Positions 1-41,625 of a stretch of DNA of 64,000 nucleotides are shown in pieces. The notes under the pieces are model-generated. The model saw only the letters and a program-made list of their open reading frames with translations, ran no database searches and was not told where the DNA came from. Position numbers and translations under genes: made by a program. The DNA is from Eubacteriales bacterium (GTDB lineage: Bacteria > Bacillota > Clostridia > Acetivibrionales > JANLFN01), in contig JANLFN010000003.1 in the NCBI GenBank assembly GCA_024655885.1, positions 158,792 through 222,791 of the forward strand. The letters run 5' to 3'. How positions within the stretch are numbered: the first letter of the stretch is position 1; every line of letters starts with the position of its first letter.

Positions 1-484
1 TGTCTCCCGGTTTTATATCGACCGTCACCGCGTCAAGGATGACCCCCTTATCCTGGGGTCCGGCAATGGAAATACGGACCGCTGCCCTGCCTTCCTCCCC
101 CTTGCCGGGATCCTTTAAAGCCTGGGTACCGCCGCCGCTTTGAGGAGCCGCCGTTTTTTCTTTTCCGCCCGCCTCACCGGAAACCGATGGAACTGCCGTC
201 TTCACCGTTTCTTCCGAGGCGGGCCTCCGGGAGCCGGATGCGGGCAATGAGCCCTATTTCTCCGTCTTTGCGGTATCCCCCATTCCCGCCCCTCCCGCGG
301 AAGCTGCAAGCTCCGGGGCGTTATCCGGGGACTGCTGCAGTACGTTTGCCTGCGGAGGGGAAGTTTCTCCCTCCGCAGGCAGGTCCGCCTTTTGGCCTGT
401 CCCGCCGCAGGAAGCCATCAGCACCAATACCGCCAGCAGCACCGAAAGACATGGCAGCAATCCTGTTTTAACAATTCTGTTCAC
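1..484 (-). pseudogene. Lipoprotein with a low-complexity linker and the start of a DUF4430-like domain. The frame is interrupted by an in-frame TAG at 254-256, and the 3' end runs off the window.
   Basis: GTG start at 484 is preceded by AGGAGG with a 6-nt spacer. Signal peptide plus lipobox (LVLMAS|C). The ORF track stops at 254, but the same frame stays open from 253 to position 1. That stretch encodes ...GKGEEGRAAVRISIAGPQDKGVILDAVTVDIKPGD, which resembles the opening strand of the DUF4430 modules in neighbouring genes. Confidence 0.5.
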
Positions 485-542: not shown

Positions 543-3500
543 CTATTTCTTTGCCTTCATCTCATACAGCCTGACGGCGATCACTGCCGCCATCTCGCGG
601 GTTACAGGCTCTTCAGGCCGGAAAAAGGAATTGTCCCCGGTCATGATGTTTTTATTGTACACGGCCGTAATGGACGGTCTGGCCCATTCGCCGGCGGTGT
701 CCAGGTCCGCAATGCCCGGATTTTCACTTTCTGCCTGAAGGCCAAAGGCCCTTGCCGCCATAACCGCCATTTCCTGCCTGGACACAGGCCGGTCGGGTGC
801 GAATTCCTCATCGGATACGCCTTTGATCAGCCCTTTCTCCCTTGCCTTCAGCACATATCCCGCATACCAGCTGTCCTGCCGCACATCCCGGTACACCGGA
901 CTGTAGCCGGCCATCGGCTGTTCCCCCAGGAGCCTTAAAAGCAGCACGGCAAATTCCGCCCTGGATATCTTCCTTGCGGGCTCGAACCGTTTTGCAGCGG
1001 CATCCGTGCCCTGCATCAAATGATACTGGGCCGCCTTTTGCACATAGGGCAGGGCCCAGCCGGATATGGCCTGGGTGTCCGAATACAGGTCGGCCGCACC
1101 GGCCAGTTCATACAGCCTCTTGCCGCCTTCCAAGAATCTCTTGTAGGCCGTGAGAGCCATCAGGGCCTGCTCTGTCGCCATTTCATCGCTGTTTGCGCCC
1201 TTGAGGTGGGAAAAGCCCCCGTCTTCTTTTTTAAATGCCAGCAGAGAGCTTAAAAGATCCCCCTCGGTCTTGGTGAAGGAAGCGCTCCCGGGGTCCACGC
1301 CCAGGGAGGTCAGTGCAATAATCACCTGGGAAATGCTTTCGCTGGATTCGCTGTCCCAGTTCTTAAAGCCCCCGCTTTTCAGCTGGGCCCTTGAAAGCCA
1401 GTCCACGGCCTTTGTCACCGCTTTTTTCACGTCCGCCCTGTCCTTGTAATTGGACAGGGCCTGCAGTGCCATGGCGGTGAGATCCACCCCGCTTTTCTCC
1501 CCTTTTGAAAGGCAGAATCCGCCGTCGGAGTTCTGGTATTCCAGGATCAGGCTCGCCAGCCCGTCCCTTGTCCACCGGGCATTTTCCGGTATGCCGTATT
1601 TCCCGCTGTCCAGGGCAATCAGTGCAAACACGGGCCCGGAGACTCCCTGTTTGTCCACTTTTTCAAAGTTATACAGCTTTTCAACCAGGTTGCAGCCTTC
1701 CAGGGCTTCAGGGTCCAATCCTACAGCTTTTGCCGCCAGCATGACCCTGGCGATATCCGTTGCAGTGCGGAAGGAACCCGCCTGTTCCTTAATATAATTC
1801 TTAAGGGACTCCCCATACCCGGCCGGGACTTTCTGACCGGCCTGGGCCAGCGCAAAAGCGGACCAGTCCGAGAGGGGGTCCTGTCCCAGTATTTTTTTCA
1901 CTGTCGTCTGCATATTCTCAGACAGCACCTTTTTCAGTTCTTCCTTCTGTGTCTTCGCAGAAGTCCCGGCGCTGCCCGACCCACTGCCGGCCTCTGTCCG
2001 GCCGCTGCCGTCGGTCTGGGTGCCTGTCCCGCCGTCCTCAGTGCCGTCCAGGGTCAAGGTGTAATACCACCGGACCACATCCCCGTCGCTGAGAATGTAT
2101 GTCCCGGCGCTCACATTGGGATTGATCCCGTTCACCGAGTACATCCATCCGCTTTCGGGTCCCCGGTCGAACTCAGCCAGCCCGTCGATGCTGGACACAT
2201 ACAGGCTGGACCCCGAGCCTTTTTTCGTGACCCTGCCGTTTCCCAACGCCCTTACAAGGATACTGTAGGGAGTGTCTCCGGCCTGTAGCGCAACCGTCCT
2301 GGAAGACAGGATTGTCCCTTTCTGGCTGTCTCCCGTCACCGACAGCGTTACAGTCTTTGAAGAAGGCGTGGTATCCCCGCCGCTGCCGCCGCTTCCGCTG
2401 TCGTCAGGCGGCTGGGGGGTGTACACCACAAATTTGGTGAAGTGCTTTGTCCATACCACCAGATCGCCGCCCACGTCAATTTTACCGGCTCCGTCATCCG
2501 GCAGGGCGAGAGCTGCCGCCATCGAATCCTGTGCAAGAACGGTGTCAATCGTTTGCAGGGAACCGCTGCTGCCGATAAAGCCCAGTGATTTTCCAGCCTG
2601 TCCTGGAAACACCAGTCTTACAGGTTTGTCGAAGGCCAGGGAAAAACCCGGGGCCCCCACTTCAATAACAGCGTTGACGGTGGCATTCGATACCGTAACA
2701 CTGCTCGTGGGCAAAAGGGAGGGCAGCTGTATAGTGCCATCCCAGCCTGCGGACGAGGTGATGGTGGTGTTCTGGGGAATGTCCATGGCCACGGTTCCCC
2801 CCGTCACGGCCACGTCCGCATGGATATAGGGAACGGTTGCGGCAGTTTGTCCATTGGTCACGGTTGTATTAACCTGCAAGCTGGTACTGCTGATTCCCTG
2901 ATCCACAGTGATCACTGTAGGGGCGGAAACCTCCAGTTTTTTCCCGTTTGTGCCTATATTGACCCGGTTGTCGGGACTACTGTAAACCACCGGTATGCTT
3001 CCGGTTCTCAGCAGACTGGGATAACTCCCCGGATTGTCCTTGCTCACCTTTAACCCATAGGTACCCGGCACATCCACACTGGATATCTCTACCTTTCCCT
3101 CATCGTCGGTGGTATACGTTTTTCCGTTGAAGCTTACAACAGCGCCTGCAACTTCTTTCTTATCTACCATTTGTTGCGCCGTATAATCATAATAACCGGC
3201 AGAGTAGACCGTAGCCGCCACAGATTCTCCTACCTTGGGCTGCTCGGGTTGGATGTCCACCAGGGGAATCAGCGTGTCGGGAGGATACATCCCGTAATAG
3301 AATATGATATCGTCCCCGTCGTTGATGTTATGTTCCGCAGGAACATCAGAAATTAATTCTCCATTGACCAGACACAGCCACCCATCCCAACCATGAAATT
3401 GCCCTGCCGTTTCTCCATTAATACTGCTGACATAGCCCCCGCTTTCAGCAGTATAAGGTATCTCCATAGAATCCAGCAGCTGCTTTAATGCGTCCAGCAC

Positions 3501-5159
3501 TGTCTGTTCGCTCCCTGAAGAGGAAACAGTCACATCCGTGTCTGCGATCGTTTCACTGCTTCCCTCCACCCGCACATGGACGGTTTTGGAAGCGGGACTG
3601 TAGTAAACCACCGTTATTCCGGTTCTCATCAGGCCGGGATAACTTCCCGGATTGTCCTTGCTCACCTTCAATGTATATGTACCGGCTGTATCTGCACTGG
3701 GGATAAGCACCTGTCCCTCATCATTTGTAGTGTACGTTTCACCATTGAAGCTTATCCGGGCACCTGAGACCTTAACCGGTACTTTCTCTTCTGCCTCCCC
3801 TTCCCAGTGAGAATAGCTGGAGGTAACTGTAACCGTCAAATCTTCTCCCACTTTGGGTTGGGCAGGCTGGATCTCTATCTCGGGCACCAGCGTATCCGAG
3901 GGACTCGCGGGATACGTGCCGTAATAAAATACCAGATCGTCTCCGCTCTGAAGCGCATAGGCGCCTATCCCTACGGAAGACAGCTTCCCGTTAATCAGGA
4001 AAAGCCAACCCGCATACGGTGGGCTTGCTTGTGCCTCCTCCCCGTTAATACTCGTGAGATAGAGTCCTAAAAGCGAGTCTACAATCTCATAGCTGATGTT
4101 CCGGTCATTCAGCACCTGTATTAAGGCATCCGCAGCGGTTTGCCCGTATACGGCAGATGTTACGCTGACATCCGTATCCGCAATGGTCTCGCTGCTTCCC
4201 TCCACACGCACGTGAACAGGAACCCCCGGCGGAACCGGCGATGAAGCTCCCAGCCTGGTCCACACGCTTGAGCCCTCTGCAATATCCCCGAGGGCAATCA
4301 GTGATTGTTCTGTTGCCAGGCCATTGGATTGAGTCGAATCAAGTTGAAATAAAAAGGAGCCATCCTCTCTCTGGAACCGCTTGAGAGCATCCAGCATGGA
4401 CGTTCCATCTTTTTCCCAGCTATCGGAAAATATGTTTTCTCCAGCAGCCACCAGCCCGGAGATTACCGTTGCAATGGTATTTGAATTTTCCTTTCCCTGC
4501 GAGCTGAAGCCGCCTGTACCAAGCTGCTGTTCTCTTAAAAATGAAACGGCACTACTGATGGCTGTATTTACCCCTGTCTGCTCCCTATGCCTTGACAAGG
4601 CAACAAGGGCCATCCCGGTGACATCATTATCACCATAGTCGCCGGTCAGCGCAAAGCCCCCGTCCGATTTCTGCTGGCTTAAAAGCCATGACACGGCATT
4701 TGACTTATTATAATCCCCTCCCGCAGTATCCAGGGCGATCATAGCCCATATGTGCATATTGACAGCGCCATTGCCGAAAGAGCCGTTTGTTCCTTGCTTA
4801 CCGGCCAGTTCAGAAAGCAAATTTCTTCCACCGAGAGCATTGCTCGGGTCCTCACCCATAGCCAGGAGACCGAGTATGCAGCCTGCATATTCGGTGGGCT
4901 GCACGTTCCCGGCCAGATCCCCGCCTTCCCACTGGGGCAGTGTCCACTTCCCGTCATGGATGTCCTGCCCGGCTCCCTTCAAGGCCACCAGCTCCCACCA
5001 GGAATCAAGCGTTGTCTTGTGCTGCCTGTAGTAGTCCACTGCCGCCGTGAGCATGTCCGAACCGGCATCCGCAAAAAGATTGACCGGCAGCAGTGTTATA
5101 AGCATGGATAGAACCAGCAAAAGAACTATGTTCTTCGTAAAAACTCTTTTATATCTCAT
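543..5159 (-). CDS. Giant secreted S-layer-anchored protein: two prenyltransferase/terpene-cyclase-like alpha-alpha toroid regions, three DUF4430 (transcobalamin-like C-terminal) modules, Ig-like spacers and three C-terminal SLH repeats.
   Basis: The ORF is 543..5273. The start is placed at ATG 5159 (AAGGGGGAG SD, then signal peptide MRYKRVFTKNIVLLLVLSMLITLLPVNLFA) because 5160-5273 overlaps the riboswitch terminator hairpin. Toroid repeats: QQKSDGGF, QLGTGGF, REDGSF, YQNSDGGF, QLKSGGF, KKEDGGF. DUF4430 signatures: GWLFLINGK..SGDDLVFYYG, GWLCLVNGE..DGDDIIFYYG, GWMYSVNGI..DGDVVRWYYT. SLH motifs: ISRAEFAVLLLRLLG, VSRQEMAVMAARAFG, VTREMAAVIAVRLYE. Confidence 0.85.
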   Translation of the reverse strand: MRYKRVFTKNIVLLLVLSMLITLLPVNLFADAGSDMLTAAVDYYRQHKTTLDSWWELVALKGAGQDIHDGKWTLPQWEGGDLAGNVQPTEYAGCILGLLAMGEDPSNALGGRNLLSELAGKQGTNGSFGNGAVNMHIWAMIALDTAGGDYNKSNAVSWLLSQQKSDGGFALTGDYGDNDVTGMALVALSRHREQTGVNTAISSAVSFLREQQLGTGGFSSQGKENSNTIATVISGLVAAGENIFSDSWEKDGTSMLDALKRFQREDGSFLFQLDSTQSNGLATEQSLIALGDIAEGSSVWTRLGASSPVPPGVPVHVRVEGSSETIADTDVSVTSAVYGQTAADALIQVLNDRNISYEIVDSLLGLYLTSINGEEAQASPPYAGWLFLINGKLSSVGIGAYALQSGDDLVFYYGTYPASPSDTLVPEIEIQPAQPKVGEDLTVTVTSSYSHWEGEAEEKVPVKVSGARISFNGETYTTNDEGQVLIPSADTAGTYTLKVSKDNPGSYPGLMRTGITVVYYSPASKTVHVRVEGSSETIADTDVTVSSSGSEQTVLDALKQLLDSMEIPYTAESGGYVSSINGETAGQFHGWDGWLCLVNGELISDVPAEHNINDGDDIIFYYGMYPPDTLIPLVDIQPEQPKVGESVAATVYSAGYYDYTAQQMVDKKEVAGAVVSFNGKTYTTDDEGKVEISSVDVPGTYGLKVSKDNPGSYPSLLRTGSIPVVYSSPDNRVNIGTNGKKLEVSAPTVITVDQGISSTSLQVNTTVTNGQTAATVPYIHADVAVTGGTVAMDIPQNTTITSSAGWDGTIQLPSLLPTSSVTVSNATVNAVIEVGAPGFSLAFDKPVRLVFPGQAGKSLGFIGSSGSLQTIDTVLAQDSMAAALALPDDGAGKIDVGGDLVVWTKHFTKFVVYTPQPPDDSGSGGSGGDTTPSSKTVTLSVTGDSQKGTILSSRTVALQAGDTPYSILVRALGNGRVTKKGSGSSLYVSSIDGLAEFDRGPESGWMYSVNGINPNVSAGTYILSDGDVVRWYYTLTLDGTEDGGTGTQTDGSGRTEAGSGSGSAGTSAKTQKEELKKVLSENMQTTVKKILGQDPLSDWSAFALAQAGQKVPAGYGESLKNYIKEQAGSFRTATDIARVMLAAKAVGLDPEALEGCNLVEKLYNFEKVDKQGVSGPVFALIALDSGKYGIPENARWTRDGLASLILEYQNSDGGFCLSKGEKSGVDLTAMALQALSNYKDRADVKKAVTKAVDWLSRAQLKSGGFKNWDSESSESISQVIIALTSLGVDPGSASFTKTEGDLLSSLLAFKKEDGGFSHLKGANSDEMATEQALMALTAYKRFLEGGKRLYELAGAADLYSDTQAISGWALPYVQKAAQYHLMQGTDAAAKRFEPARKISRAEFAVLLLRLLGEQPMAGYSPVYRDVRQDSWYAGYVLKAREKGLIKGVSDEEFAPDRPVSRQEMAVMAARAFGLQAESENPGIADLDTAGEWARPSITAVYNKNIMTGDNSFFRPEEPVTREMAAVIAVRLYEMKAKK

Positions 5160-5231
5160 AACCTTGCAACTCCCCCTTTTAAATTTCCAATCATGAAAAA
5201 CCCTGCCGTACTTTTTCATACTTTCCGCTAC

Positions 5232-5515
5232 AAAATAAAACCTCTCAACTGGAATTGTTAAGAGGTTTTTCATAAAAAGGCATATTTAAATGCACAAAAA
5301 AAACACCCCCTATCCTTCGTAGAGTTTTTGGTGCATGGACACAGGCAGGTCTTCTGGCTCAAGCCTCATCACCCCCCCTACCTTCCCGGTTTATCAGTGG
5401 CATTCCTGGGGGGATTCTTCTTATACAGCGGCGGGACCGCGCGGGATTCTCACCCGACTTCCCTTTTCACCGGTTCGCGATTACCCCTTAATCACAACCG
5501 GCACCTGAATCCTTT
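5232..5515 (-). promoter_or_regulatory. Cobalamin riboswitch RS1 (aptamer ~5304-5512) with terminator hairpin (5237-5270).
   Basis: The minus strand reads GGTGCC...AAGGGAAGTCGGGTGAGAATCCCGCGCGGTCCCGCCGCTGT...GCCACTG...GGGAAGG...AGCCAGAAGACCTGCC (B12 box = 5344-5359). It is followed by AAACCTCTTAAC-N7-GTTGAGAGGTTT plus a U-rich tail. Confidence 0.9.
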
Positions 5516-5781
5516 TTCAATATTTAATTTGTACGGCTGCTGTCCTCCTGTGCAGGAAAGAATTCTTTGCAGCAAATGCTGATGAACAAAACACCCTCCT
5601 GCCACTATAGACAAAACGGGATAAATCTATGTTATAGTTCCACCCCTTATATGAAAATTCTTCTAAAACAGGTTCATAGAAGGGAAGGCTCCCTAGTTTC
5701 AATTGCAGCGGAGTTCACCCTCGAGTCCCAAGCCGGATTTTCCACCCGGCTCCCCGGGCAAATTTTTCCCTTGCCAAGTAT

Positions 5782-5810
5782 ATTTTATGTAACTGTCTCC
5801 TTTATGTCAA
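5782..5810 (-). promoter_or_regulatory. Near-consensus sigma-A type promoter (TTGACA-17-TAAAAT) reading toward RS1.
   Basis: Minus strand TTGACA at 5805-5810 and TAAAAT at 5782-5787, with an exact 17-nt spacer. It lies ~260 nt upstream of the RS1 aptamer. Confidence 0.6.
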
Positions 5811-5875: not shown

Positions 5876-6607
5876 CTATTCCGCTTTTTTGCACAGCCTG
5901 GCACCGAGGAAGAGAAAAACAATAAAATACAGCATCAGTATTCCAAGGTGGGAAGCCATGCTCAAAGGGTCCTCACCCCGGCTTCTCAAGCCAAGGCTTG
6001 TGTGGGTGAGCGGCAAAACCCAGATCAGCTGCTTCAGTCCGAAGGGCATTTTATCCAGGGGGAAAAAAGTGCCGCAAAGGAAGGACATGGGAGTGATGAT
6101 AAAGTTTGTGAATTTCCCCATGTCCGCATGAGAATCAATAAGCAGCCCCACAGCAAAGCCTAGTGCGGAAAAGACAAAGCAGTTAAGCACTATGATGGCG
6201 ATAAAATAGGCGTCAATCCGGACTCCTGCCCTGAATGCAAGGGACAGGAGGAGGATGAGCAGTCCCGAGTACATGCCTCTCAATGCTCCCGCCGTTATCT
6301 TGCCCGCGGCATATACCATCATATTCAAAGGGGCAATCATGAATTCCTCGAAGGTTTTCTCGTAGATCCTGGAAATATTGATGCTGTTGGCAATATTGCT
6401 GAAGCTGGCCGTCATGGTGCTGAGCCCTATGATTCCCGGGATTACAAAACTCACATAGCCCGTTCCGCCTACCTTTATTTCGCTTCCAAGCCCCCATCCG
6501 AAGGCGATGAGATAGAGTACGGGTCCGACCATGGAGCCGGTGGTGGTGCTCCAGAATTTTCGTTTAAAAATCACATACTCCTGCCATAAAATGGTCATGA
6601 ACTGCAT
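5876..6607 (-). CDS. ABC-2 type exporter permease.
   Basis: 243 aa with six predicted hydrophobic segments and an ABC-2/NodJ-DrrB-like layout. It starts 1 nt after the stop of the upstream ATPase gene. Confidence 0.8.
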   Translation of the reverse strand: MQFMTILWQEYVIFKRKFWSTTTGSMVGPVLYLIAFGWGLGSEIKVGGTGYVSFVIPGIIGLSTMTASFSNIANSINISRIYEKTFEEFMIAPLNMMVYAAGKITAGALRGMYSGLLILLLSLAFRAGVRIDAYFIAIIVLNCFVFSALGFAVGLLIDSHADMGKFTNFIITPMSFLCGTFFPLDKMPFGLKQLIWVLPLTHTSLGLRSRGEDPLSMASHLGILMLYFIVFLFLGARLCKKAE

Positions 6608-6608
6608 A

Positions 6609-7448
6609 TCAGTCCCCCACCTTTCGATTGGTCAGTTTGATAAAAGTGTCCTCCAGGTTGGCGGGCCGGATGTTTACGCTTCCTTCCATTCCCGCCGCGC
6701 TTTCGATGGCCTCCTGTCTCGAATTGAAAAAGCTGGTTCTGGTTGTGCCGTGGTCGAAATACTCCAGCACGAATTTCCCCGTTTTTTCTATCAGCCTCTT
6801 CGGCGTATCCAGCTCCACCAGCCGCCCTCCGTTCATGAGTCCCACCCTGGTGCACAGCACCTCCGCTTCCTCTATATAGTGGGTGGTCAGCAGCACCGTC
6901 AGGCCGTTCTTGTTAAGCTCCTTCATCAGGTCCCACATCTTCCGCCTCACAGCGGCATCCAGGCCCACGGTGGGCTCGTCTAAAAGAAGGATCCGGGGCG
7001 CATGCATCAGCGCCCGTGCAATCATCAGCTTTCTCTTCATTCCCCCAGAAAAATTCTTCACCGGTTCATGGGCCCGGCCGGACAGGTCGGTGAACTGTAA
7101 GAGCTCATCAATGCGCTTCCTGCGGAGCTCTTTGCGCAGGCCGTAAAGACGGCCGTGGAGCTCCAGGTTCTGCCAGGCCGTCATTTCCCCCTCCAGGTTC
7201 ATGTGCTGCGGGACAACCCCGATTTTTGCCTTCAGCTCGGTGAGGTTCCGGTCCATTTTTCTGCCGTCCATGGAAATAGAGCCGCCGGTGGGGGGCGTGA
7301 GGGTGCTCAGCATCCTTATGGTCGTCGTTTTTCCCGCCCCGTTGGGCCCCAGAAGCCCAAAAAACTCACCCTCTTCTATTTTAAGATTCAGGTTGTCTAC
7401 CGCAGTTATGTCCCCGTATTTCTTTGTGAGGTTTTCAAAAACAAGCAA
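6609..7448 (-). CDS. ABC transporter ATP-binding protein (partner of the ABC-2 permease).
   Basis: Walker A GPNGAGKTT, signature FSGGMKRKL, Walker B LLLDEPT. TTG start with a GGAAGGGGAG SD. Confidence 0.85.
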   Translation of the reverse strand: MLVFENLTKKYGDITAVDNLNLKIEEGEFFGLLGPNGAGKTTTIRMLSTLTPPTGGSISMDGRKMDRNLTELKAKIGVVPQHMNLEGEMTAWQNLELHGRLYGLRKELRRKRIDELLQFTDLSGRAHEPVKNFSGGMKRKLMIARALMHAPRILLLDEPTVGLDAAVRRKMWDLMKELNKNGLTVLLTTHYIEEAEVLCTRVGLMNGGRLVELDTPKRLIEKTGKFVLEYFDHGTTRTSFFNSRQEAIESAAGMEGSVNIRPANLEDTFIKLTNRKVGD

Positions 7449-9952: not shown

Positions 9953-10969
9953 TTATTTGAACAGCTGCGGATAGGCCGCCTTTGCGGCATCTTCCACCCC
10001 AAGGGCGATATACTGGGATATGGCGGACATGTGCTTGTCCGGCAGCAAATAAATCCTGTTGTTTTTAACCGCCTTCACCGAGGCGAGGCTCTTGTCCTTC
10101 CTGATCTCGTCGGCAAAAGCCGCAGGGTCCTGTTTTTTGTCATAGGACCACAGGGGTAAAAACAGCACATCGGGATTGATTTCTACGATTTTTTCCTTGG
10201 AAATCTGGGCGTTGGGCTCCAGCCCCGCTTGTGCAGCCGCGTTGATAAGCCCGGCCCTGGTCACGATATCGTCAAAGGTTGTCCCCTTGGAACTGGTACT
10301 TCCGTATGAATTGTAGCTTAGAACGGTAAGCCTTTCCTCCGGTTTTAAGGTTTTTACCTTTTCTTCCACCGCATTAATTCTTTTATCCATATCCTCCACA
10401 ATTTCCCGTCCCTTTGCCTCTTCGCCCACAACGCGGGCAATTTCCATCAGGGTGCTCTTCTGTTCCTCAATACTGTTGGCCGTCTTATAGCAGTACACGG
10501 GAATTTTGGCGTCCCTCATCTGCTGTATGCCCTCTTTTCTCATCCAGTCCGCTGCAAAAACAATATCGGGCTTTAAGGATATGACCAGCTCAAGGTTATT
10601 CTCCGCCTTCAAAAAAGCCCCCGCCCTGTCGGCGATGTTGGAAATTCCGTCATCCTCGGCGATCTTGCCCGAAAGCGCCTTGATCCGGCTGCCGTCCACC
10701 AGGGATAAAAGCATTTCATCCGTCCCCAGGGTCAGGGAAACAATGGCCTTAGGCTTTTTGTCGATGGTCATTTCATATCCCGTCGAATCCTTCACTTTCA
10801 GGGGAAAAGCACTTTGCTCCGCTGCCGCCGGAGTTGAGGGCTGCCCGCTGGGCTCCGCAGCGGTGGATTGGCCGGAGGTGCCTCCCTGCCGGGAACCGCA
10901 CGCTGCCAGCATCCCCGTCAACAGCAGGAGGACGGCTGCTGCCGCCGCCATTCTTTTTGCTTTTAACAT
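9953..10969 (-). CDS. BtuF/FecB-type (class 8) substrate-binding lipoprotein, first large gene after riboswitch RS2.
   Basis: Lipobox LTGMLAA|C. PBP pattern KPKAIVSLTLGTDEMLLSLV...PDIVFAADW. The start is placed at ATG 10969 (AGGAG 9 nt upstream); the ORF track start is 10978. Confidence 0.8.
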   Translation of the reverse strand: MLKAKRMAAAAAVLLLLTGMLAACGSRQGGTSGQSTAAEPSGQPSTPAAAEQSAFPLKVKDSTGYEMTIDKKPKAIVSLTLGTDEMLLSLVDGSRIKALSGKIAEDDGISNIADRAGAFLKAENNLELVISLKPDIVFAADWMRKEGIQQMRDAKIPVYCYKTANSIEEQKSTLMEIARVVGEEAKGREIVEDMDKRINAVEEKVKTLKPEERLTVLSYNSYGSTSSKGTTFDDIVTRAGLINAAAQAGLEPNAQISKEKIVEINPDVLFLPLWSYDKKQDPAAFADEIRKDKSLASVKAVKNNRIYLLPDKHMSAISQYIALGVEDAAKAAYPQLFK

Positions 10970-10995
10970 CCTAAACATCTCCTATATTATGAAAT

Positions 10996-11112: not shown

Positions 11113-11390
11113 TATAAAACCTCTCAACTTAAACCGTTAAGAGGTTTTTGGAATCAGCCTTTCGGCCATGCAAAAAACACCCCCTATCGCTCGTAGAGTT
11201 TCCGGTGTATGGAAACAGGCAGGTCTTCTGGCTCAAGCCTCATCACCCCCTCTACTTTCCCGTTTTACCGACGGCATTTCCGGGGGACTCCTCTTTTACA
11301 GCGGCGGGACCGCGCGGGATTCTCACCCGACTTCCCTTTTCACCGGCCGGTAATTACACTTTAATCACGGCCGGCACCTGAATCCTTGCT
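11113..11390 (-). promoter_or_regulatory. Cobalamin riboswitch RS2 (aptamer ~11178-11386) with terminator hairpin (11117-11150).
   Basis: B12 box AGCCAGAAGACCTGCC = 11218-11233. The core GGGAAGTCGGGTGAGAATCCCGCGCGGTCCCGCCGCTGT is identical to RS1, and the terminator stem is the same as in RS1. Confidence 0.9.
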
Positions 11391-11512
11391 TTCAATTTTA
11401 TACATTATAAAAACCCTTCTGTCCTACATGGACAAATTTGTTACAAACCATTCCTACGTAATTAATTACATTCTACCAATTTCAATGGCAAAACTCAAGC
11501 ATTAATCCATAA

Positions 11513-11583: not shown

Positions 11584-14484
11584 TTACAGCACCAGCTTAT
11601 ACAGCCGGTACAGCATGACGGCGGTCTCCGCCCGGGTGGCATTCTTCCCGGGAGCGAAGCTCCCGTCCTCCATGCCCTTGATGATGCCTTCCCGCACCAG
11701 CGCCGCCGCGCCGGTTTTCGCCCAGGAGGCGATGTCCTGCCGGTCCGGGAAGATGTTCAGCTGCTTTTCGTCCCCCGGCCGGTACCACGCCTGCTCCAGC
11801 ACCTTGCCCATGATGGCCGCCATTTCCTGCCGCGTGATGAAGCCCTCCGGGTCAAAGGCATCCGCTGTCTTTCCGCTCACCAGCCCCTTTTCATAGGCTG
11901 CCGCCACGGCGCTATAGTACCAGCTGTCCGCCTTCACATCCTTAAAGGGCAGGCTGCCGGCAGAGGTCCCCTCATATTTCATCATCCGGCCGATCAAGGC
12001 GCAAAATTCGGCCCGGGTCACGTTGGCAAAAGGGTCGTAGGCGTCCTCTCCCTTGCCTCTGATGATTCCCTTGCCCGCCATGACCGCCACCGCGTCCCTG
12101 GCCCAGGTCACCTGCTCGGCATCCCCGAAGGTCCTGGCGCTCTCCTTCACGAAATACCGGCTGAAGTGCCCGGTGAGGAAGTTCACCGTCCTGGTCCGGG
12201 CATCGTAGATGCCTCCCACCGGCTCGGTGCTCCCGTCCTCCTTCAGCAGGAAGACCGTCAGCCGGTCGCCGTTCTTGACGCTGCCGGTGTAGGGAATGCT
12301 CACCCGCATGGGCTCCTTGAAGCTCTTGACAACGGTGCCGCCCACTCTGGCCTCCAGGTTCACGATGACGCTGCCTTTGGGCACCTGGGCCTTGGCGCTC
12401 TCGGACAGGTCGGCGTAATCCACCTTTTCGGCCGCAAGGCTGATTTCCTTCCCCTTGGCCGCCTCTCCGAAGGTTCTGGAGGTGAGGTCGAAGGAGGCCA
12501 CCTCGGTGGCGATCTCCACGGTATCCGCCTGCTTGAGCAGGCCCACCGCCTTGGCGTCCAGCTTCACCGCCACCGCGGGGGTCTTCTGCTCCGGCACCAC
12601 CAGGGTCACCTTCTTCTGCAGCGATTTCAGCTCGTCCTCGGTGAGGGTACCTGCCTTCTTTATTTTGTCCAGTTGGTCGCTGAGGCCCTTCAATGCGGCG
12701 GACAGCTCTTCGGTGCCCACCAAAGCGGTGGCTTTCCCGTTTTCCACCTTGATTTTATCCTTGCCGATTATCACCTTTCCGGCTTCATTTAAAAGGTTTT
12801 TCACCGTGTCCACAGCCGTAGTCTCTCCGGTAGTCGCAACCTCCCCCGTGGTATTCGACGCGTCGCCCTTGACGGTGACGCTGACCGTCTCAGTCTTTGA
12901 AAGGATGGGGAAATAGTAGGAGCCGTGGGTGGAGTTCTTGTCCAGCTTGACGGCATAGACCTCATAGGTGCCGGGGCTGTCCATCTTGATCTCCACTGTC
13001 CCGTCGGGCCCCGTGACGGCGCGTTCGGTGCCGCCTACATACACCGAGGCCCCTTCAATGGTCTTGGTGCTGCCCGATCCTCCGTCCCAATTGTTGTTGG
13101 TCTGGCCTGTCACCTTCACCTTGATCGTGCCTCCCGCATCCAGGCTGGTGGGGCTTACACCGATGCTGCTCCCATAGTAGGCATACAGGTCGGTATAGTA
13201 CCAATCCACCCGGTCCCCGTCCTTGATGGGCCACACCCCCGTACCTTGGTTGATGACCTTGTTATTGACCCTCACCATCCAGCCGCAGGTGATGTGCTCG
13301 TTCCGGAAGTCGAACTCCTCCTCTCCAGCCATCCGGGCCACATAGTTGTCGTTGGACTTGATGAGGTTGTCCCGGATACCGGCCTCATTCCACGCCACAA
13401 TGGTGGCCAGCAGGACGGTGGCTTTGGAAAAGCTGTGGGAATTTCCGTCCGGGTCGGTGATTTTGTATTTCCCGTCGCTGGTCCTGTACTTGGAAGGGTC
13501 GAAGACCACCGTGCTGTTGTAAATGGTTCCCTTATACCCCTCAATACGCATCTGTACATGAATGTTGCTGTCGGGAACCGGATTGCCCGGGTCATCGCCG
13601 GTGGGCTTCCCCACCCGGATGGACACCGGTACCGGCCTCACCAGGCTGCCGGAGGAGGGGGCGGTCACGTAGTAGTTGCCCTCCTTTGTTCCGGTGAAAA
13701 CGGCCTGCCCGTTTTGGTCGGTGGTCTTGGAGACGCTGTCGAAGTACAGCGTCTGACCCGCCGCCGGCGTGAGCGCAGTGCCCTGCACCTTGTTCAGGGT
13801 AGCTGTAAAAGAACCGCCCACATCCACCCGGAAGGCGGAAAGGGTGATTTTAGTGAGCACCGGGTCCCACAGCAGGTCGTCCACCAGCACGATTTCATCC
13901 TTGTCCGCCAGCAGGGCGGAGGGGAGGGTCATGCCTCCCGTGCCGTTGACCAGCCACTGCCAACCCTCCTCCCCGGAGATGGTGTCAAGCATGCCCTGGT
14001 TCTCGGTATAGGTCACGCCTCCGGCCTCCAGGGCCTTCCTTACCGCTTCCAGCAGGGTGGTCTGCCCCACCAGGATGTCCACCTGGGTCTCGGGCAGCAG
14101 GGTCTTCTGGGCTCCCTCCACCCGGACAGTGACGGTGCCGTCGGCGGAATTTTTAATGGTAAAATCCGGCGGCTGTACGGTAATGCCGTTGCTGGTCAGG
14201 ACTGTCTTATAGCTTCCCTCTTCCATGGGAAAGGTGAAGGAGTAAGCCCCGCTGCTTTTATCCGAGCGGGTTTGGTCCATATAGCACTTTTCACCGTCCA
14301 CAGTGCTCTCCACAATCAGGGATACATAGGTATCCACTGTGGTGTTGCCGGTAATGGCCACCTGCTGCCCTTCCACCTGGATGTCGGCGGTAAAGCTGTC
14401 GGATGCCAGAGCCGGCGGCACTGTCCCAAATATCAGGACCAATGCCAGCAGCAGCGGCAGAATGATTTTCTTTACGGTCTTCAT
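11584..14484 (-). CDS. Secreted SLH-anchored protein with two DUF4430 modules and Ig-like/coiled regions.
   Basis: AGGAGG SD and a signal peptide ending PPALA|SD. DUF4430 signatures GWQWLVNGTGGMTLPSALLADKDEIVLV and CGWMVRVNNKVINQGTGVWPIKDGDRVDWYYTD. Three C-terminal SLH repeats (VTRAEFCALIGRMM, ITRQEMAAIMGKVL, ATRAETAVMLYRLY). Confidence 0.85.
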   Translation of the reverse strand: MKTVKKIILPLLLALVLIFGTVPPALASDSFTADIQVEGQQVAITGNTTVDTYVSLIVESTVDGEKCYMDQTRSDKSSGAYSFTFPMEEGSYKTVLTSNGITVQPPDFTIKNSADGTVTVRVEGAQKTLLPETQVDILVGQTTLLEAVRKALEAGGVTYTENQGMLDTISGEEGWQWLVNGTGGMTLPSALLADKDEIVLVDDLLWDPVLTKITLSAFRVDVGGSFTATLNKVQGTALTPAAGQTLYFDSVSKTTDQNGQAVFTGTKEGNYYVTAPSSGSLVRPVPVSIRVGKPTGDDPGNPVPDSNIHVQMRIEGYKGTIYNSTVVFDPSKYRTSDGKYKITDPDGNSHSFSKATVLLATIVAWNEAGIRDNLIKSNDNYVARMAGEEEFDFRNEHITCGWMVRVNNKVINQGTGVWPIKDGDRVDWYYTDLYAYYGSSIGVSPTSLDAGGTIKVKVTGQTNNNWDGGSGSTKTIEGASVYVGGTERAVTGPDGTVEIKMDSPGTYEVYAVKLDKNSTHGSYYFPILSKTETVSVTVKGDASNTTGEVATTGETTAVDTVKNLLNEAGKVIIGKDKIKVENGKATALVGTEELSAALKGLSDQLDKIKKAGTLTEDELKSLQKKVTLVVPEQKTPAVAVKLDAKAVGLLKQADTVEIATEVASFDLTSRTFGEAAKGKEISLAAEKVDYADLSESAKAQVPKGSVIVNLEARVGGTVVKSFKEPMRVSIPYTGSVKNGDRLTVFLLKEDGSTEPVGGIYDARTRTVNFLTGHFSRYFVKESARTFGDAEQVTWARDAVAVMAGKGIIRGKGEDAYDPFANVTRAEFCALIGRMMKYEGTSAGSLPFKDVKADSWYYSAVAAAYEKGLVSGKTADAFDPEGFITRQEMAAIMGKVLEQAWYRPGDEKQLNIFPDRQDIASWAKTGAAALVREGIIKGMEDGSFAPGKNATRAETAVMLYRLYKLVL

Positions 14485-14499
14485 CGTTCATCCTCCTAT

Positions 14500-17400
14500 C
14501 TATTGTGCGCCGTCCGGGGCTGCGGCTCTCCCGGAGCTGCCCGAATCCCCCGAACTCTGCTGCTTTTCGAGAATGGCTTCCGACAGGGGCCTTGGCCTCT
14601 CCAACTGATCCCATACCAGCACCTTGATGCCGTATTTATCCCTGTCCGCCTCGGGTATCCTGTAGAAGCCGTTTACCTTCCCGGCCTCACCCGGCAGGAA
14701 ATCCCTGTCCACATAGGAAATATGGACCACCTTTCCGGTATCCCTGCTATAGACAATGACAATAAATACCGCTGATTTCTGTGCACCGGAGGTATTGGTC
14801 GCACTGACCCCCAGGTCCTTGCCCTGGCCGCCGGCGCCGCTGTCCGCCTTTGCAATATCAAAGTCCTTTCCGGCAACAGCAACCCGCCCCTGGCCGAAGA
14901 TCTCGGCTTTATCCTTCAAGGAGGCCGTCACGACAACCTCCCCCGGTTCAAGAGCTTTTAGCCTGGCCGCCTTGCTTTCCTCGTCTATAATGACAGACGC
15001 TGTGGCGGGATTGCTCACTTTCCATGCCACCTTGTCATCCGGCACGAAAAATCCCTTCTGGTCCTTGGCCCTGAGCCCGAAGCTCTGGCCCGCTTCCAGC
15101 ACCAGGTCCCCGGGATAGACCTCAAGAGAGGTGATGTCCTCCGTGCTCCCGGCTCCCGCGTATTTTATTTTATAAAAGATGGTAGAAACCCCTTTCGAAT
15201 AAAACTGCTTCAGGGCCGCCATGGCCTCCAGGGCCTGGTCGCTGGCCATGCCCGGATCCTCCGTTGTCATGTGCATGAATACGCCGCTGGAGGTCTGGAA
15301 GCTGAGCCATCCGGTGACGGCATTGCCCCGGCTCTTGGTAAACTGGGGACCCTGAGGGTCTATGCCCCAGGCGGTGATTCCCATGATCACCTGGGAGCAG
15401 GACTCGGAGTTGATGGTCCCCCAGGAGCCGAAGCGCCCGTCCTCCTGCTGGTTTTTGCTCAGCCAGGCGATGGCCTTTTCTCCGGCCGCTTTCACGTCCG
15501 CTCTCTCCCGGTAAGGAGCTAGAGCGTAAAGGGCCATGGCCGTCATGTCCGGGTCGGGAGTGCCGCCGCCGTAGGCCCAGCCGTTCCCGTCGGCGGTCCT
15601 GTTGTCCAGGATGTACTGGATGAACTCCTCCCGGGTATGCCTGGAGCCGGCGGGTATTTCCGCATTCGCCGCGTCCACGCCGATGAGGCCGAAGACAGCT
15701 GCGTTGATGCCCTGCCCCATGCCCGAATAGTTGAGGATATTCTCCATCAAATCAATTGCTCTATCCGCCAAAACTGTCTCCGGATCATAGCCCGCTGAAA
15801 CCACGGCGATGGCTGTGCGCTCATAATCGGTCATAAGAGTTCCCAGGTTGGCCGCATTTTTTTTCAGCCGGTCGATATAGGTCTCCCCGTTGTCCACATA
15901 GGGCTCTTTGTTTATATCCTCTCCGATGGCGTTAAGCGCGAAGGCGGCCCAGTCTCCAGGAACCCCTTGCTTGCGGAACCAGGAAAGCGTCCGGTCGATG
16001 GCCTGGTTGATTTCATCCACGCTCAGCTTCTTCACCTCGGGCAGGCCGACGGTGAGGACCAGCTTCCCTGAAATATCGGGGAACCGCTGCAGCCTGACCT
16101 TGATCTCGGCACTGCCTTCTTTGACTCCCGTAACCGTCCCGTTGCCGTCCACAGCCGCCACAGCCGGCAGGGTGCTGCCCCACTCCAGGGCTTCCCCCCG
16201 GAGGGGTAGCCCGTCTATGGCTGTTATCTCCGCTTTTACTGAAAGCGTGCTTCCGGTCAAAAGCTTGGTGGAAGGGGCCGATACCGTAAGGCTTAGACCT
16301 GTGGTACCAGGGAGTACCGAAACGCTCAGGCTGTCGGCCACGCCGGGATTTTCTCTGGATGAGACAGTGATGCTCGCACTGCCGGCCTTCCGGGCAGTGA
16401 CAAGTCCTACCTCACTCACCGAGGCCACCTCCGGATTGTCGCTCTTCCATTCCAGGTCCGCCCTGTAGACCCTCCGGCCGTCTGCGTCGGTTATGTCCAG
16501 GCTGGGGGTAAAGCTGCCGCCGGGGAGCATGGCGGCTTGCCCGTCCTCCAGCCTGAGCACCGAGGCCTCAGGTGCATAGGAGGTGTCGGTGAACTTCAGA
16601 AGGGTTGCTTTTACCGCCGTGTCGACAGAGCCTGCCAGCTTATGGCCCACGGAATACAGTTCTCCCGAAGGGCCGTAGCAGGATACCCCGGACAGGAAAT
16701 AGCCCGTGTCCCCGCTCTTCTTGACAAAGCTTCCGTCGGGAGAGAGGGCGTAGATGCTGTCGCCCATGGTCACCAGCACCGTACCGTCGCTGTCCACCAT
16801 AGGGATTCCCGGAAGCCTGCGGTTTAACACATTAAGCAGCACTTCCTCTTCGGGAGCAACGCTTTCGGTCTCCTCCCCTGTTGCGGCGTCAAGCACGTGC
16901 AGCACCTGGTCGCTTGTTACGCAGTAGAGCCTGTCCCCGAATACGGCCGGGTCGTACCAGCTCCTGTTCTCGTCCTTTATCCATTTGACCTGGCCGTCGG
17001 GGCCCATGGCCAGGAGATTATCATAAAAACCTCTTGAACCATTAACCGTTTTTCCCACACTCACATACAGCGTCCCGTCCTGCCCCACGGCCATCCGGGA
17101 TTCTCTTGTTGTATATGGATATGCACTTGAGGTATACATATAAATATATCTATTCTCTGGAAGCTGTTTATACCATTTAAGGCTTTTGGACGACGGGTCC
17201 ACCGCATTGACGATGGAAGAGCTTCCCACATAGATGGTGCCGTCGGGCGCCACCGCCGGGGTGCTGCAGCTGTAGGCGCCGTTGAGCCTCACCTTCCACA
17301 GCGCCTTGCCCGAGGTGTCGACGGCGTGGAGGTATAGGTTCCGGGTGGCCACGTAGACGGTCTGCCCGTCGGGAGACAAGGCCGGCGAGGTGCCTGGCGC

Positions 17401-17844
17401 CACTGCCCCCTCCATTTTAAATGTCCACCGCACCTGCCCCTCGGGGGATATGGAGTACAGATACCCGTCCCCTGAACCGATGTAGCTGTTGCCCTCCCTG
17501 TCGAAGACCGGCCTCTTTCCCCCGGTTTCGCTATAGGCTCCGGGCTGGTTCAAATCGACCTTCCACCGCATGATGCCGTCAGGGGCTATGCAGTAGAGGT
17601 AGCCGTCCTCCTGGGCGATGTAGGCGTTGCCCCCACCATCCACCGAAGGGCATTCGTCGTCCCTGATTCTGGTATTGGCAGGGCTGACTCCCCTATCGTT
17701 TTCAAAGGTATCCCTGTTCCAGTCCAGCGCTGCCGCTCCGCCGGCTTCTGCGGCCAGGGCGGGCACGGGAAGCTGCGCCGCCAGCAGCAGGGCCGCCAGC
17801 AGGCCTGCCAATAAAGGATAAAGCCTTTTCTGATTCTTTCTCAT
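14500..17844 (-). CDS. Secreted 1114-aa protein: PQQ-like beta-propeller, two Big_2 domains, a terpene-cyclase-like toroid, a further Big_2 and a C-terminal beta domain.
   Basis: AGGAGG SD and a signal peptide ending PALA|AE. Propeller blades GYLYCIAPDGIMRWKV, GYLYSISPEGQVRWTF, LYLHAVDTSGKALWKV. Big_2 pattern LEWKSDNPEVASVSEVGLVTARKAGSASITVSS. Toroid repeats ADGNGWAY and QQEDGRFGSWG. Confidence 0.8.
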   Translation of the reverse strand: MRKNQKRLYPLLAGLLAALLLAAQLPVPALAAEAGGAAALDWNRDTFENDRGVSPANTRIRDDECPSVDGGGNAYIAQEDGYLYCIAPDGIMRWKVDLNQPGAYSETGGKRPVFDREGNSYIGSGDGYLYSISPEGQVRWTFKMEGAVAPGTSPALSPDGQTVYVATRNLYLHAVDTSGKALWKVRLNGAYSCSTPAVAPDGTIYVGSSSIVNAVDPSSKSLKWYKQLPENRYIYMYTSSAYPYTTRESRMAVGQDGTLYVSVGKTVNGSRGFYDNLLAMGPDGQVKWIKDENRSWYDPAVFGDRLYCVTSDQVLHVLDAATGEETESVAPEEEVLLNVLNRRLPGIPMVDSDGTVLVTMGDSIYALSPDGSFVKKSGDTGYFLSGVSCYGPSGELYSVGHKLAGSVDTAVKATLLKFTDTSYAPEASVLRLEDGQAAMLPGGSFTPSLDITDADGRRVYRADLEWKSDNPEVASVSEVGLVTARKAGSASITVSSRENPGVADSLSVSVLPGTTGLSLTVSAPSTKLLTGSTLSVKAEITAIDGLPLRGEALEWGSTLPAVAAVDGNGTVTGVKEGSAEIKVRLQRFPDISGKLVLTVGLPEVKKLSVDEINQAIDRTLSWFRKQGVPGDWAAFALNAIGEDINKEPYVDNGETYIDRLKKNAANLGTLMTDYERTAIAVVSAGYDPETVLADRAIDLMENILNYSGMGQGINAAVFGLIGVDAANAEIPAGSRHTREEFIQYILDNRTADGNGWAYGGGTPDPDMTAMALYALAPYRERADVKAAGEKAIAWLSKNQQEDGRFGSWGTINSESCSQVIMGITAWGIDPQGPQFTKSRGNAVTGWLSFQTSSGVFMHMTTEDPGMASDQALEAMAALKQFYSKGVSTIFYKIKYAGAGSTEDITSLEVYPGDLVLEAGQSFGLRAKDQKGFFVPDDKVAWKVSNPATASVIIDEESKAARLKALEPGEVVVTASLKDKAEIFGQGRVAVAGKDFDIAKADSGAGGQGKDLGVSATNTSGAQKSAVFIVIVYSRDTGKVVHISYVDRDFLPGEAGKVNGFYRIPEADRDKYGIKVLVWDQLERPRPLSEAILEKQQSSGDSGSSGRAAAPDGAQ

Positions 17845-17858
17845 CGATTGTTCCTCCT

Positions 17859-22184: not shown

Positions 22185-22256
22185 TTCCCTTATTTCCCTC
22201 CTCTTATAGATTGTATATAAAATTTTAATAGTTTCCATACGCCTTTACAGCCAAAG

Positions 22257-22282
22257 GGCAGGAGCGCATTTGCGCCCCTGCC
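22257..22282 (-). terminator. Intra-operon hairpin (possible attenuator) between the 283-aa and the ~1441-aa genes.
   Basis: 11-bp stem GGCAGGGGCGC-aaat-GCGCTCCTGCC on the minus strand, followed only by CTTTGG (weak U-tract). Confidence 0.3.
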
Positions 22283-22360
22283 GGGAAGCCTCTCCGGAAG
22301 GCCTTATTGCATTTGACCCATATTGCTTAATTCATAAGGCTTATTTCAGGACCTGATGTC

Positions 22361-24840: not shown

Positions 24841-24866
24841 AAAACCCCTCTCCTTTTTTAGAGGGG
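24841..24866 (-). terminator. Hairpin terminator overlapping the stop codon of the TIM-barrel gene.
   Basis: Minus strand CCCCTCT-aaaaaagg-AGAGGGG followed by TTTT. Confidence 0.5.
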
Positions 24867-25853: not shown

Positions 25854-25931
25854 ATTTTACCACTCCTTTATGCCAATATTATTCTATGCCGGAAGCACCG
25901 TATAAGTCAACCTATTTTTCTGCCCCGGGGT

Positions 25932-27548: not shown

Positions 27549-27600
27549 ACCGGACACTCTCCTTATCCTTGTGTTTAGCGCGTTATTTCCCGCAGCGGCT

Positions 27601-27653: not shown

Positions 27654-27711
27654 GGTGGTCTGCTGTCTATAAAATTTTGCAAGGCTATCCTGAACAATTT
27701 TACCTTAAAAT

Positions 27712-33493: not shown

Positions 33494-33494
33494 C

Positions 33495-41603: not shown

Positions 41604-41625
41604 CTTATCCCCACAGCTATCCTCT

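Follow-up and report, generated by a model that had tools for sequence, protein, structure and literature searches.

What is a large, predicted surface protein whose domains recall animal vitamin B12 carriers doing at the head of a transporter operon in a clostridial bacterium? The question is raised by a gene for a 1538-amino-acid (aa) protein on the minus strand of a 64,000-nucleotide (nt) stretch of contig JANLFN010000003.1 (assembly GCA_024655885.1, Eubacteriales bacterium); "the window" below means that whole stretch. Our answer is that the gene probably encodes an extracellular, wall-anchored protein that captures corrinoids (the vitamin B12 family) ahead of an importer operon. An earlier note on this DNA had read the protein as a corrinoid binder tethered in the manner of S-layer proteins, and that reading is strengthened here by a fold like that of the animal carriers, sequence homology of the DUF4430 domains, S-layer homology (SLH) repeats, a cobalamin riboswitch and an operon with a CbrT-type transporter—features that are conserved across Bacillota; ligand binding itself is predicted.

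The protein is a chain of repeated modules. We used each segment as a phmmer query against the homologues, which gave consistent boundaries, and sought internal similarity by self-comparison in 120-aa chunks. From the N terminus to the C terminus, the map is as follows ("Ig" stands for immunoglobulin and pLDDT for the predicted local distance difference test score):

5070..5159, minus strand: signal peptide, aa 1-30 (MRYKRVFTKNIVLLLVLSMLITLLPVNLFA, then DAG), typical and read directly from the translation
4233..5069, minus strand: toroid 1 (alpha/alpha), aa 31-309, 35-40% identical to toroid 2; a helical toroid in the AlphaFold model, pLDDT >90
3825..4232, minus strand: DUF4430 copy 1 (transcobalamin-like beta domain), aa 310-445; Pfam PF14478, modelled as a beta-grasp fold
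3597..3824, minus strand: putative beta-sandwich ("Ig-like") 1, aa 446-521; present in 21 homologues, sub-threshold in Pfam
3210..3596, minus strand: DUF4430 copy 2, aa 522-650; opens the second repeat unit
2964..3209, minus strand: putative beta-sandwich ("Ig-like") 2, aa 651-732; from repeat comparison and the homologue map
2385..2963, minus strand: middle domain, aa 733-925; all-beta by AlphaFold, present in 27 homologues
2025..2342, minus strand: DUF4430 copy 3, aa 940-1045; best Pfam stretch aa 979-1034, Foldseek match to 3u7z
1104..1922, minus strand: toroid 2, aa 1080-1352; Pfam Prenyltrans and SQHop_cyclase_C
546..1103, minus strand: three SLH repeats (cell-wall anchor), aa 1353-1538; Pfam SLH

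Pfam recognizes DUF4430 in three stretches (PF14478, 156.1 bits against a cutoff of 23.8) and SLH likewise in three (99.1 bits), the latter also matching the SLH domain of Bacillus anthracis Sap (3pyw/6bt4, E 4e-9). Toroid 2 scores 55.1 bits with Prenyltrans (cutoff 26.5) and 39.7 bits with SQHop_cyclase_C (cutoff 26.1); toroid 1 is found at sub-threshold level only in the Pfam search. The Foldseek matches of toroid 2 include farnesyltransferase beta and terpene cyclases (E 4e-6), a little ahead of the transcobalamin alpha domain (E 5e-5). The middle domain, predicted by AlphaFold with about 17 strands (pLDDT ~90), has no Pfam match and no separate Foldseek match among the top 50. Toroid 1 and DUF4430 copy 1 are joined with almost no linker, and low-complexity linkers (aa 926-939 and aa 1046-1079, pLDDT <50) flank DUF4430 copy 3. 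Together, the signal peptide and the three SLH repeats would place the protein on the cell wall. The earlier note had listed a single 1538-aa chain with S-layer-type tethering and the order toroid, DUF4430, Ig-like, DUF4430, Ig-like, middle domain, DUF4430, toroid and three SLH repeats; length, anchor and order are all as it described. Its two Ig-like segments also lie where it put them; the name, however, has only sub-threshold Pfam matches behind it (CarboxypepD_reg, E 0.009; Big_3_5, E 0.02), and "beta-sandwich" is a plausible description.

The N-terminal module ties the protein most directly to the animal carriers. We modelled aa 31-445 with AlphaFold using an alignment (A1) of 30 toroid-DUF4430 modules; this model 1 has a pLDDT of 90.9 and a predicted template modelling score (pTM) of 0.75. 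In a Foldseek search of the PDB, every one of its 15 best matches is a transcobalamin, a haptocorrin or an intrinsic factor (E 2e-11 to 5e-9), and the alignments, 428-447 columns long, take in both domains; terpene cyclases and prenyltransferases come next, at about 1e-5, and match the toroid alone. Toroid 1 thereby matches both the transcobalamin alpha domain and terpene cyclases. As modelled, then, the pair of toroid 1 and DUF4430 copy 1 has the two-domain topology of these carriers, an alpha6/alpha6 toroid followed by a beta domain.

For the beta domain the relationship can also be traced by sequence. A profile of 29 DUF4430 domains (A5), run against PDB sequences, matches the haptocorrin beta domain (4kki, aa 346-432, E 6.2e-6), the isolated transcobalamin beta domain (5no0, E 9e-5), the Ruminococcus gnavus DUF4430 structure (3u7z, E 5e-4) and intrinsic factor (E 0.047). 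To judge by these matches, DUF4430 is homologous to the animal carriers' beta domains (PMC4350170, PMC1796856). All three copies retain the family's invariant tryptophan and its near-invariant isoleucine, asparagine and aspartate. A beta-hairpin that follows the helix defines the transcobalamin-like clade within the SLBB superfamily (PMC1796856); AlphaFold predicts one in model 1 (helix H312-322, then strands E327-332 and E335-341) and another in model 2, which covers aa 733-1352 (H232-240, then E245-248 and E255-259). An hhalign comparison with a human transcobalamin sequence aligned the beta domain only (Prob 78.5, E 1.7e-5).

Regulation points to the same class of ligand. The open reading frame (ORF) runs 543..5273 on the minus strand, and we place the true start codon at ATG 5159 because a terminator-like hairpin sits within the longer ORF, because a strong Shine-Dalgarno sequence precedes this ATG, and because the resulting 1538-aa product is 100% identical to an NCBI entry (our P0001, [quoted passage not shown]). 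The gene and its leader comprise:

543..5159, minus strand: coding sequence of the 1538-aa surface protein, stop codon 543-545
about 5170-5176, minus strand: Shine-Dalgarno sequence GGGGGAG, about 10 nt before ATG 5159
5231..5269, minus strand: terminator-like hairpin with a 13-bp stem (5269-5237), then AUUUUG; candidate expression platform in the leader
5327-5523, minus strand: cobalamin riboswitch aptamer RS1; Rfam RF00174, 105 bits against a gathering cutoff of 31.5, full length 1-189
5782..5810, minus strand: promoter-like TTGACA-17-TAAAAT upstream of the riboswitch, 11/12 matches; consensus match only

The element upstream of the large gene that had been named RS1 is, by its Rfam match, a cobalamin riboswitch, and it lies 168 nt upstream of the start codon. 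The hairpin is a candidate for the expression platform of the riboswitch, and would act as a terminator.

The genes that follow point to transport. The operon runs off the window, and we read the DNA beyond the window start from contig JARYLS010000004.1 (assembly GCA_029907485.1; locus L080). The large gene comes first. Behind it lie an ORF of 76 aa that resembles a lipoprotein and a DUF4430 protein of 170 aa, and then the components of an energy-coupling factor (ECF) importer: EcfT of the CbiQ type, a fused EcfA-A' ATPase and an S component. The sole significant PDB sequence match of the S component is CbrT (6FNP chain A, E 1.1e-10), and 6FNP is ECF-CbrT, an experimentally characterized ECF transporter for vitamin B12 (PMC5997447). 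Within the window, the small ORFs are:

254..484, minus strand: ORF of 76 aa, second in the operon, carrying a lipoprotein-type signal; a TAG separates it from the DUF4430 ORF that follows in the same frame
1..247, minus strand: start of the 170-aa DUF4430 protein, which runs off the window start

A TAG (254-256) and two codons part these two ORFs, which share a frame (window 1-484, minus strand; L080 14676-15425). They look like one DUF4430 lipoprotein of about 249 aa, split by a nonsense mutation or an assembly error; alternatively, translation may restart at a TTG with GGAG 8 nt upstream.

These associations recur well beyond this genome. GTDB species genomes, searched with an alignment of 8 closer sequences (A3), yielded 78 related loci, which come from across Bacillota and include members in Paenibacillus, Cohnella, Desulfosporosinus, Syntrophomonadaceae, Caloramator, Ruminococcus, Eubacterium and Ruminiclostridium. 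We scanned them with a covariance model made from the five aptamers of the window. It found 53 riboswitches, every one (53/53) on the strand of the gene; one lies upstream of the match in 47 of the 78 loci, and within 1 kb in 37 of those. By tblastn, EcfT, EcfA-A' and EcfS are encoded on the same strand in 46, 44 and 40 loci, respectively. Many loci are cut by contig ends, which makes both the riboswitch and the ECF counts lower bounds. The linkage to corrinoid control and transport is strong and conserved.

The way in which the two domains are distributed among 221 homologues suggests how they work. The commonest long architecture is toroid-DUF4430-(sandwich)-(middle)-DUF4430-toroid-SLH, in which the linker from toroid to DUF4430 is short (median 7 aa) and that from DUF4430 to toroid longer (about 43 aa). 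Relatives with several copies are, as their sequences read, common: among 105 SLH proteins with both domain types, 23 have two toroids and two DUF4430 domains, six (this protein included) have two and three, and three have two and four. Another 48 of the 221 consist of toroid and SLH only. At the three loci of this type that we inspected (Aminipila butyrica, Sporobacter termitidis and one metagenome contig) the next gene encodes a separate DUF4430 protein of about 300 aa, and ECF genes follow; in A. butyrica a cobalamin riboswitch lies directly upstream. Because the same pair occurs both fused and split—classic evidence of this kind—toroid and DUF4430 would be expected to function together. 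In two homologues, a toroid is fused to a BtuF-type Peripla_BP_2 domain. A fusion to an ECF S component, suggested for homologues P0193-P0207 by JGI names only, is not relied on here, as Pfam found no transporter domain in them. One homologue of 1412 aa with SLH, DUF4430 and toroid (P0020) is deposited as "hypothetical protein PF010_g2661 [Phytophthora fragariae]"; almost certainly it stems from a bacterial contaminant, Paenibacillus-like, of the oomycete assembly.

We envisage the following mechanism. The cobalamin riboswitch and terminator-like hairpin would allow the operon to be expressed when intracellular corrinoid is low. The signal peptide would export the protein and the C-terminal SLH repeats would hold it on the cell wall, with five candidate ligand-binding domains projecting outward: an N-terminal toroid-DUF4430 pair with the domain order and predicted fold of transcobalamin, an extra DUF4430 that would stem from tandem duplication of a DUF4430 + beta-sandwich unit, and a C-terminal pair in reverse order, DUF4430-linker-toroid, with a flexible 34-aa linker. 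The beta domain of transcobalamin binds cobalamin and cobinamide on its own, and it comes together with the alpha domain only when ligand is present (PMC5599065). By analogy, a DUF4430 domain would bind a corrinoid first and a toroid would then cap it, either in cis (toroid 1 on DUF4430 copy 1, possibly also toroid 2 on DUF4430 copy 3 by way of the linker) or in trans, with the cap supplied by another toroid protein nearby. The earlier note had proposed pairing of both kinds from the sequence; the split operons, in which toroid-SLH and DUF4430 proteins come from adjacent genes, and the ligand-driven assembly of the transcobalamin domains now speak for it. The captured corrinoid would pass to the ECF-CbrT-type importer of the same operon, and possibly also to the BtuF-like/FecCD importer of the adjacent riboswitch operon. 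The identity of the ligand, the formation of a clamp, the number of sites and the hand-off are all inferred from these comparisons.

Several findings weigh against corrinoid capture by such a clamp. The earlier note had proposed superposing a predicted structure on the carriers; their folds are indeed the best matches, but the closed holo clamp is not reproduced, and a superposition of model 1 on holo-transcobalamin gives a template modelling score (TM) of 0.41-0.45 and a root-mean-square deviation (rmsd) of 18-19 A. We regard this as uninformative rather than negative, because the transcobalamin domains come together only around cobalamin (PMC5599065); it is expected of an apo prediction, yet it lends no positive support. 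The C-terminal pair is separated by a disordered linker and is not predicted as a rigid unit (model 2: pLDDT 86, pTM 0.58). The A1 profile has no match to the alpha region of transcobalamin, and matches transcobalamin and intrinsic factor in the beta region only; by sequence the toroids instead resemble squalene-hopene cyclase (SHC) and prenyltransferases, the A1 profile reaching 1e-24 against SHC. The Cobalamin_bind family (PF01122) has no match in the protein at E <= 0.01, and homologue P0137 has a sub-threshold one (19.6 bits against a 25-bit cutoff). With our home-made covariance model, 31 of the 78 loci have no upstream riboswitch, many of them being cut by contig ends or having a match that is not at the gene start. 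Finally, a literature search found no binding data for any bacterial member.

The cyclase-like sequence of the toroids invites an explanation without corrinoids, in which the toroids are enzymes or modules that bind glycans or isoprenoids, the protein is mainly a structural or adhesive component of the wall or S-layer, and the DUF4430 domains are incidental. In sequence searches of Pfam and the PDB the toroids fall in with SQHop_cyclase, Prenyltrans and the TED domain of alpha-2-macroglobulin, and the 48 homologues with toroid and SLH only could be taken in the same sense. Both toroids also carry a nearly invariant motif, D-x-D-[ILMV]-T-[GA]-M-A-L, at aa 177-185 (window 4605-4631) and aa 1224-1232 (window 1464-1490), with D in 29/30 and T in 30/30 sequences of A1, and D and T each in 20/20 of alignment A2. 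It resembles a decayed form of the DxDDTA motif of class II terpene cyclases. DxDD is the catalytic motif of these enzymes, and neither toroid has it intact: toroid 1 reads D-N-D-V-T (aa 177-181) and toroid 2 G-V-D-L-T (aa 1224-1228). The protein is, moreover, predicted to be extracellular, away from isoprenoid diphosphate substrates; the inspected toroid-SLH-only genes adjoin DUF4430 and ECF genes, with a B12 riboswitch in A. butyrica; and toroids occur fused to BtuF-type binding proteins. Given the linkage to riboswitch and CbrT, we lend this explanation scarcely any credence, and regard the motif as a candidate ligand-contact site in an extracellular, presumably non-enzymatic toroid. Its equation with the His173/Asp176 segment of human transcobalamin (...HSVDTAAMA...) is not supported, as hhalign aligned the beta domain only.

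A different ligand is the next alternative, and here a homologous system counts against corrinoids: the split pair Lsa1839/Lsa1840 of Lactobacillus sakei, in an ECF-like operon, has been connected with haem uptake through docking and through a deletion mutant (bioRxiv 10.1101/864751). The present protein might likewise bind haem or another tetrapyrrole, and FeoAB and an iron-dependent repressor are encoded just past the operon. FeoAB, however, lies on the opposite strand and outside the operon, whereas a cobalamin riboswitch is found directly upstream here and in 47 of the 78 related loci, and the S component matches a B12 transporter. Because of this riboswitch and CbrT linkage we consider haem very unlikely. 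The remaining alternative keeps the ligand and changes its fate: the protein could serve mainly as a surface reservoir or for competitive sequestration, so that corrinoids are held at the wall, withheld from neighbours and buffered in supply, with no direct delivery. Three DUF4430 domains and two toroids are many binding-type domains for one chain; besides this one, the window encodes four surface proteins that have DUF4430, toroid or beta-propeller domains; the Bacteroides surface B12 binder BtuJ1 is described as an extracellular reservoir (bioRxiv 10.1101/2025.07.01.662609); and in animals, carriers with this fold bind their ligand so firmly that it takes proteolysis to free it (PMC5997447). 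The gene nevertheless shares an operon with an ECF importer in 46 of the 78 loci, a conserved linkage that points to an uptake path, and storage and delivery are not mutually exclusive. As the main role, storage seems to us unlikely; we keep to capture for import as the probable one.

The extra DUF4430 domain goes back to a tandem duplication. A unit of about 205 aa, DUF4430 plus Ig-like, had been noted as tandemly duplicated at about 2985-4218, and both shared motifs are indeed present exactly twice: the opening, VHVRVEGSSETIADTDV, at aa 315 and aa 527, and the closing motif at aa 493-514 and aa 699-720, so that the duplicated region spans about 3000-4217 of the DNA. The comparison of the units at the DNA level that was suggested for dating the duplication gives an old event. 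In global alignment, the units are 56% identical as protein (115/205) and 62% as DNA, with 0.37 nonsynonymous substitutions per site (dN) and about 1.65 synonymous ones (dS), the latter saturated; on these values the duplication is old and both copies have been kept by purifying selection. The two units open with 17 identical residues, for which recent gene conversion was considered and rejected, since 10 of the 17 codons differ; the identity has therefore been maintained by selection.

Nor is the duplication peculiar to this protein, as we had also considered: two homologues (P0002 and P0017) likewise hold two DUF4430 + sandwich units. A neighbour-joining tree, built without bootstrap, joins the two units of each protein with one another (76%, 56% and 33% identity), which suggests recurrent duplication or conversion. 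The units of this protein are about equidistant from those of P0002, which does not settle the branching order.

The spare DUF4430 copy 2 belongs to a region rich in similar domains. The window region holds four toroids and at least five DUF4430 domains (six with the small protein at the window start) in six or seven proteins, and reads as a dense corrinoid-acquisition island. Five cobalamin riboswitches lie in its 64 kb, all on the minus strand: RS1 and those at 11201-11396, 24146-24316, 40573-40769 and 42325-42524. The second precedes a BtuF-like/FecCD/ATPase importer, whose BtuF-like protein is encoded at 9953-10978, and an ABC-2 pair, and the third precedes four large surface proteins (11584-23212, minus strand) with beta-propellers, Ig-type domains, a toroid, and DUF4430 + SLH.

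Because of this spare domain and the other toroid and DUF4430 proteins of the island, pairing in trans, or even a relay, is plausible as speculation. The protein might then be one element of a cell-wall-spanning corrinoid relay in which clamps are assembled combinatorially. The binding of corrinoids to a single DUF4430 domain would be weak and reversible, and tight sites would form when any of several toroids caps it—the two in this chain, that of the toroid-SLH protein at 25932-27557 or that of the propeller-toroid protein at 14500-17844. Differing toroid-DUF4430 pairings could tune affinity or selectivity among cobamides, and the ligand would be moved inward to ECF-CbrT or BtuF. We put the relay forward tentatively, and think it doubtful. 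If true, it would parallel, in Gram-positive bacteria, both the Isd/NEAT haem relay and the BtuG/H/J relay of Bacteroides, and would reveal the way in which the ancestor of animal transcobalamin functioned; ECF transporters would then gain a partner that binds the ligand outside the cell, which in the general view they do without.

The concept of such a B12-scavenging surface protein is not new. Burroughs, Balaji, Iyer and Aravind predicted in silico a bacterial class in which a transcobalamin-like SLBB domain has a toroid fused to one side or the other, with associated Ig and propeller domains and with paralogous SLBB proteins in the same operon as CbiO/CbiQ transporter genes, and proposed a role in B12 scavenging (Biol Direct 2007, 2:4; PMC1796856). 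The toroid on either side, the Ig-type domains, the same-operon paralogue and the CbiQ-type genes are all seen here, and the protein belongs to that predicted family as a member with many modules and an SLH anchor. It differs in having both orientations at once together with an extra duplicated unit (two toroids and three DUF4430 domains), in its SLH rather than LPXTG anchor, in its documented riboswitch linkage and in its CbrT-like S component; "riboswitch" and "SLH" have no occurrence in the 2007 paper (PMC1796856). What we add is the riboswitch linkage over 78 loci, the CbrT-type partner, the correspondence of fused and split forms, the match at the level of structure and the dating of the duplication. 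A literature search found no experimental study of DUF4430/SLH/riboswitch proteins of this kind.

Comparison with characterized systems helps to place it. The mammalian transcobalamin, haptocorrin and intrinsic factor (2BB5, 4KKI, 2PMV; PF01122 and PF14478) are its best fold matches in the PDB and have homologous beta domains, whereas its toroid is not detectably related by sequence to their alpha domain and the modelled domain orientation differs. They feed a receptor for endocytosis; the bacterial protein, in contrast, is multi-module, predicted to be wall-anchored and proposed to feed a membrane transporter. ECF-CbrT of Lactobacillus delbrueckii (6FNP) shares EcfT (CbiQ), EcfA-A' and a CbrT-like S component with the operon, but as characterized it works without an extracellular binding protein (PMC5997447), and such genes are accompanied, here as in at least 46 related loci, by one for a large transcobalamin-like surface protein. 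The secreted transcobalamin-beta-like and alpha-like proteins Lsa1839 and Lsa1840, for which a ligand cleft in trans has been proposed (bioRxiv 10.1101/864751), have the split layout of loci L081, L082 and L084; they are separate small proteins with haem as proposed ligand, while the modules here are fused, multiplied, SLH-anchored and under a cobalamin riboswitch. Bacteroides BtuG, BtuH and BtuJ (PMC6143338, PMC8941943, bioRxiv 2025.07.01.662609) follow the same logic: riboswitch-controlled surface corrinoid binders, several paralogues to a genome, that feed a transporter. Their folds (beta-propeller, DUF4465) are unrelated, they are lipid-anchored on the outer membrane and they serve the TonB-dependent BtuB, so no homology is claimed. 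BtuG is a beta-propeller, and the neighbouring riboswitch operon encodes beta-propeller surface proteins; that such proteins stand under B12 control recalls BtuG.

Corrinoids are a limiting shared resource in anaerobic communities. Their extracellular capture by Gram-positive bacteria is essentially unstudied, while the surface binders of Bacteroides have been characterized in detail. To our knowledge, ECF transporters are usually described as lacking soluble binding proteins, a textbook view that a transcobalamin-like capture protein linked to an ECF-CbrT importer would challenge. With the 78 loci, from gut Ruminococcus to Paenibacillus, and the split operons known from A. butyrica and S. termitidis, there is now a definite system on which tests can be made. 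It is relevant to the bacterial origin that has been proposed for animal B12 carriers, and the modular DUF4430 and toroid domains could become compact B12-binding reagents. What makes it valuable is its anatomy, the comparison across loci and the experiments that become possible—an entry point rather than a new concept.

The remaining observations concern the rest of the island. Among the aptamers, those at 5327, 11201 and 40573 are paralogues and nearly identical (the five-way alignment has a mean column identity of 79%), which suggests that the leader was copied within the genome. After the BtuF/FecCD/ATPase genes comes the ABC-2 type ATPase and permease pair (5876-7448, minus strand), an exporter-type system in an operon for B12 import. 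The operon behind riboswitch 24146 encodes a Big_2 protein of 283 aa, a protein of 1459 aa with CARDB, Ig and two PQQ-like beta-propellers, a propeller + Big_2 + toroid protein of 1114 aa and a DUF4430 + SLH protein of 966 aa. Riboswitch 40573 precedes (28568-40207, minus strand) a 446-aa DUF4430 protein, after which come three proteins of 704, 240 and 526 aa that have no Pfam match and a MoxR AAA/DUF58/BatA/VWA set; in S. termitidis (L084), too, a MoxR gene lies just upstream of the toroid-SLH gene. Riboswitch 42325 precedes (40788-42201, minus strand) a protein of 191 aa that Pfam does not recognize and a single CbiJ (precorrin-6x reductase), besides which no cob/cbi gene was seen within the window.

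The 541-aa toroid-SLH protein (25932-27557, minus strand) has no riboswitch of its own; in the surrounding stretch (24858-28542, minus strand) an IS200-like transposase lies upstream of its gene and an AP_endonuc_2 (xylose-isomerase-like TIM barrel) gene downstream. In A. butyrica, an AP_endonuc_2 + DUF2284 + HNH_repeat operon has a cobalamin riboswitch of its own (L081 1016-4539), and DUF2284 lies inside the ECF operon of L082 (8536-9105). The AP_endonuc_2, DUF2284 and HNH_repeat genes may be unrecognized members of the corrinoid regulon. Elsewhere in the window, an S-adenosylmethionine (SAM) riboswitch (RF00162, 90 bits) precedes metK, the S-adenosylmethionine synthetase gene (45588-46972, minus strand), an ordinary arrangement.

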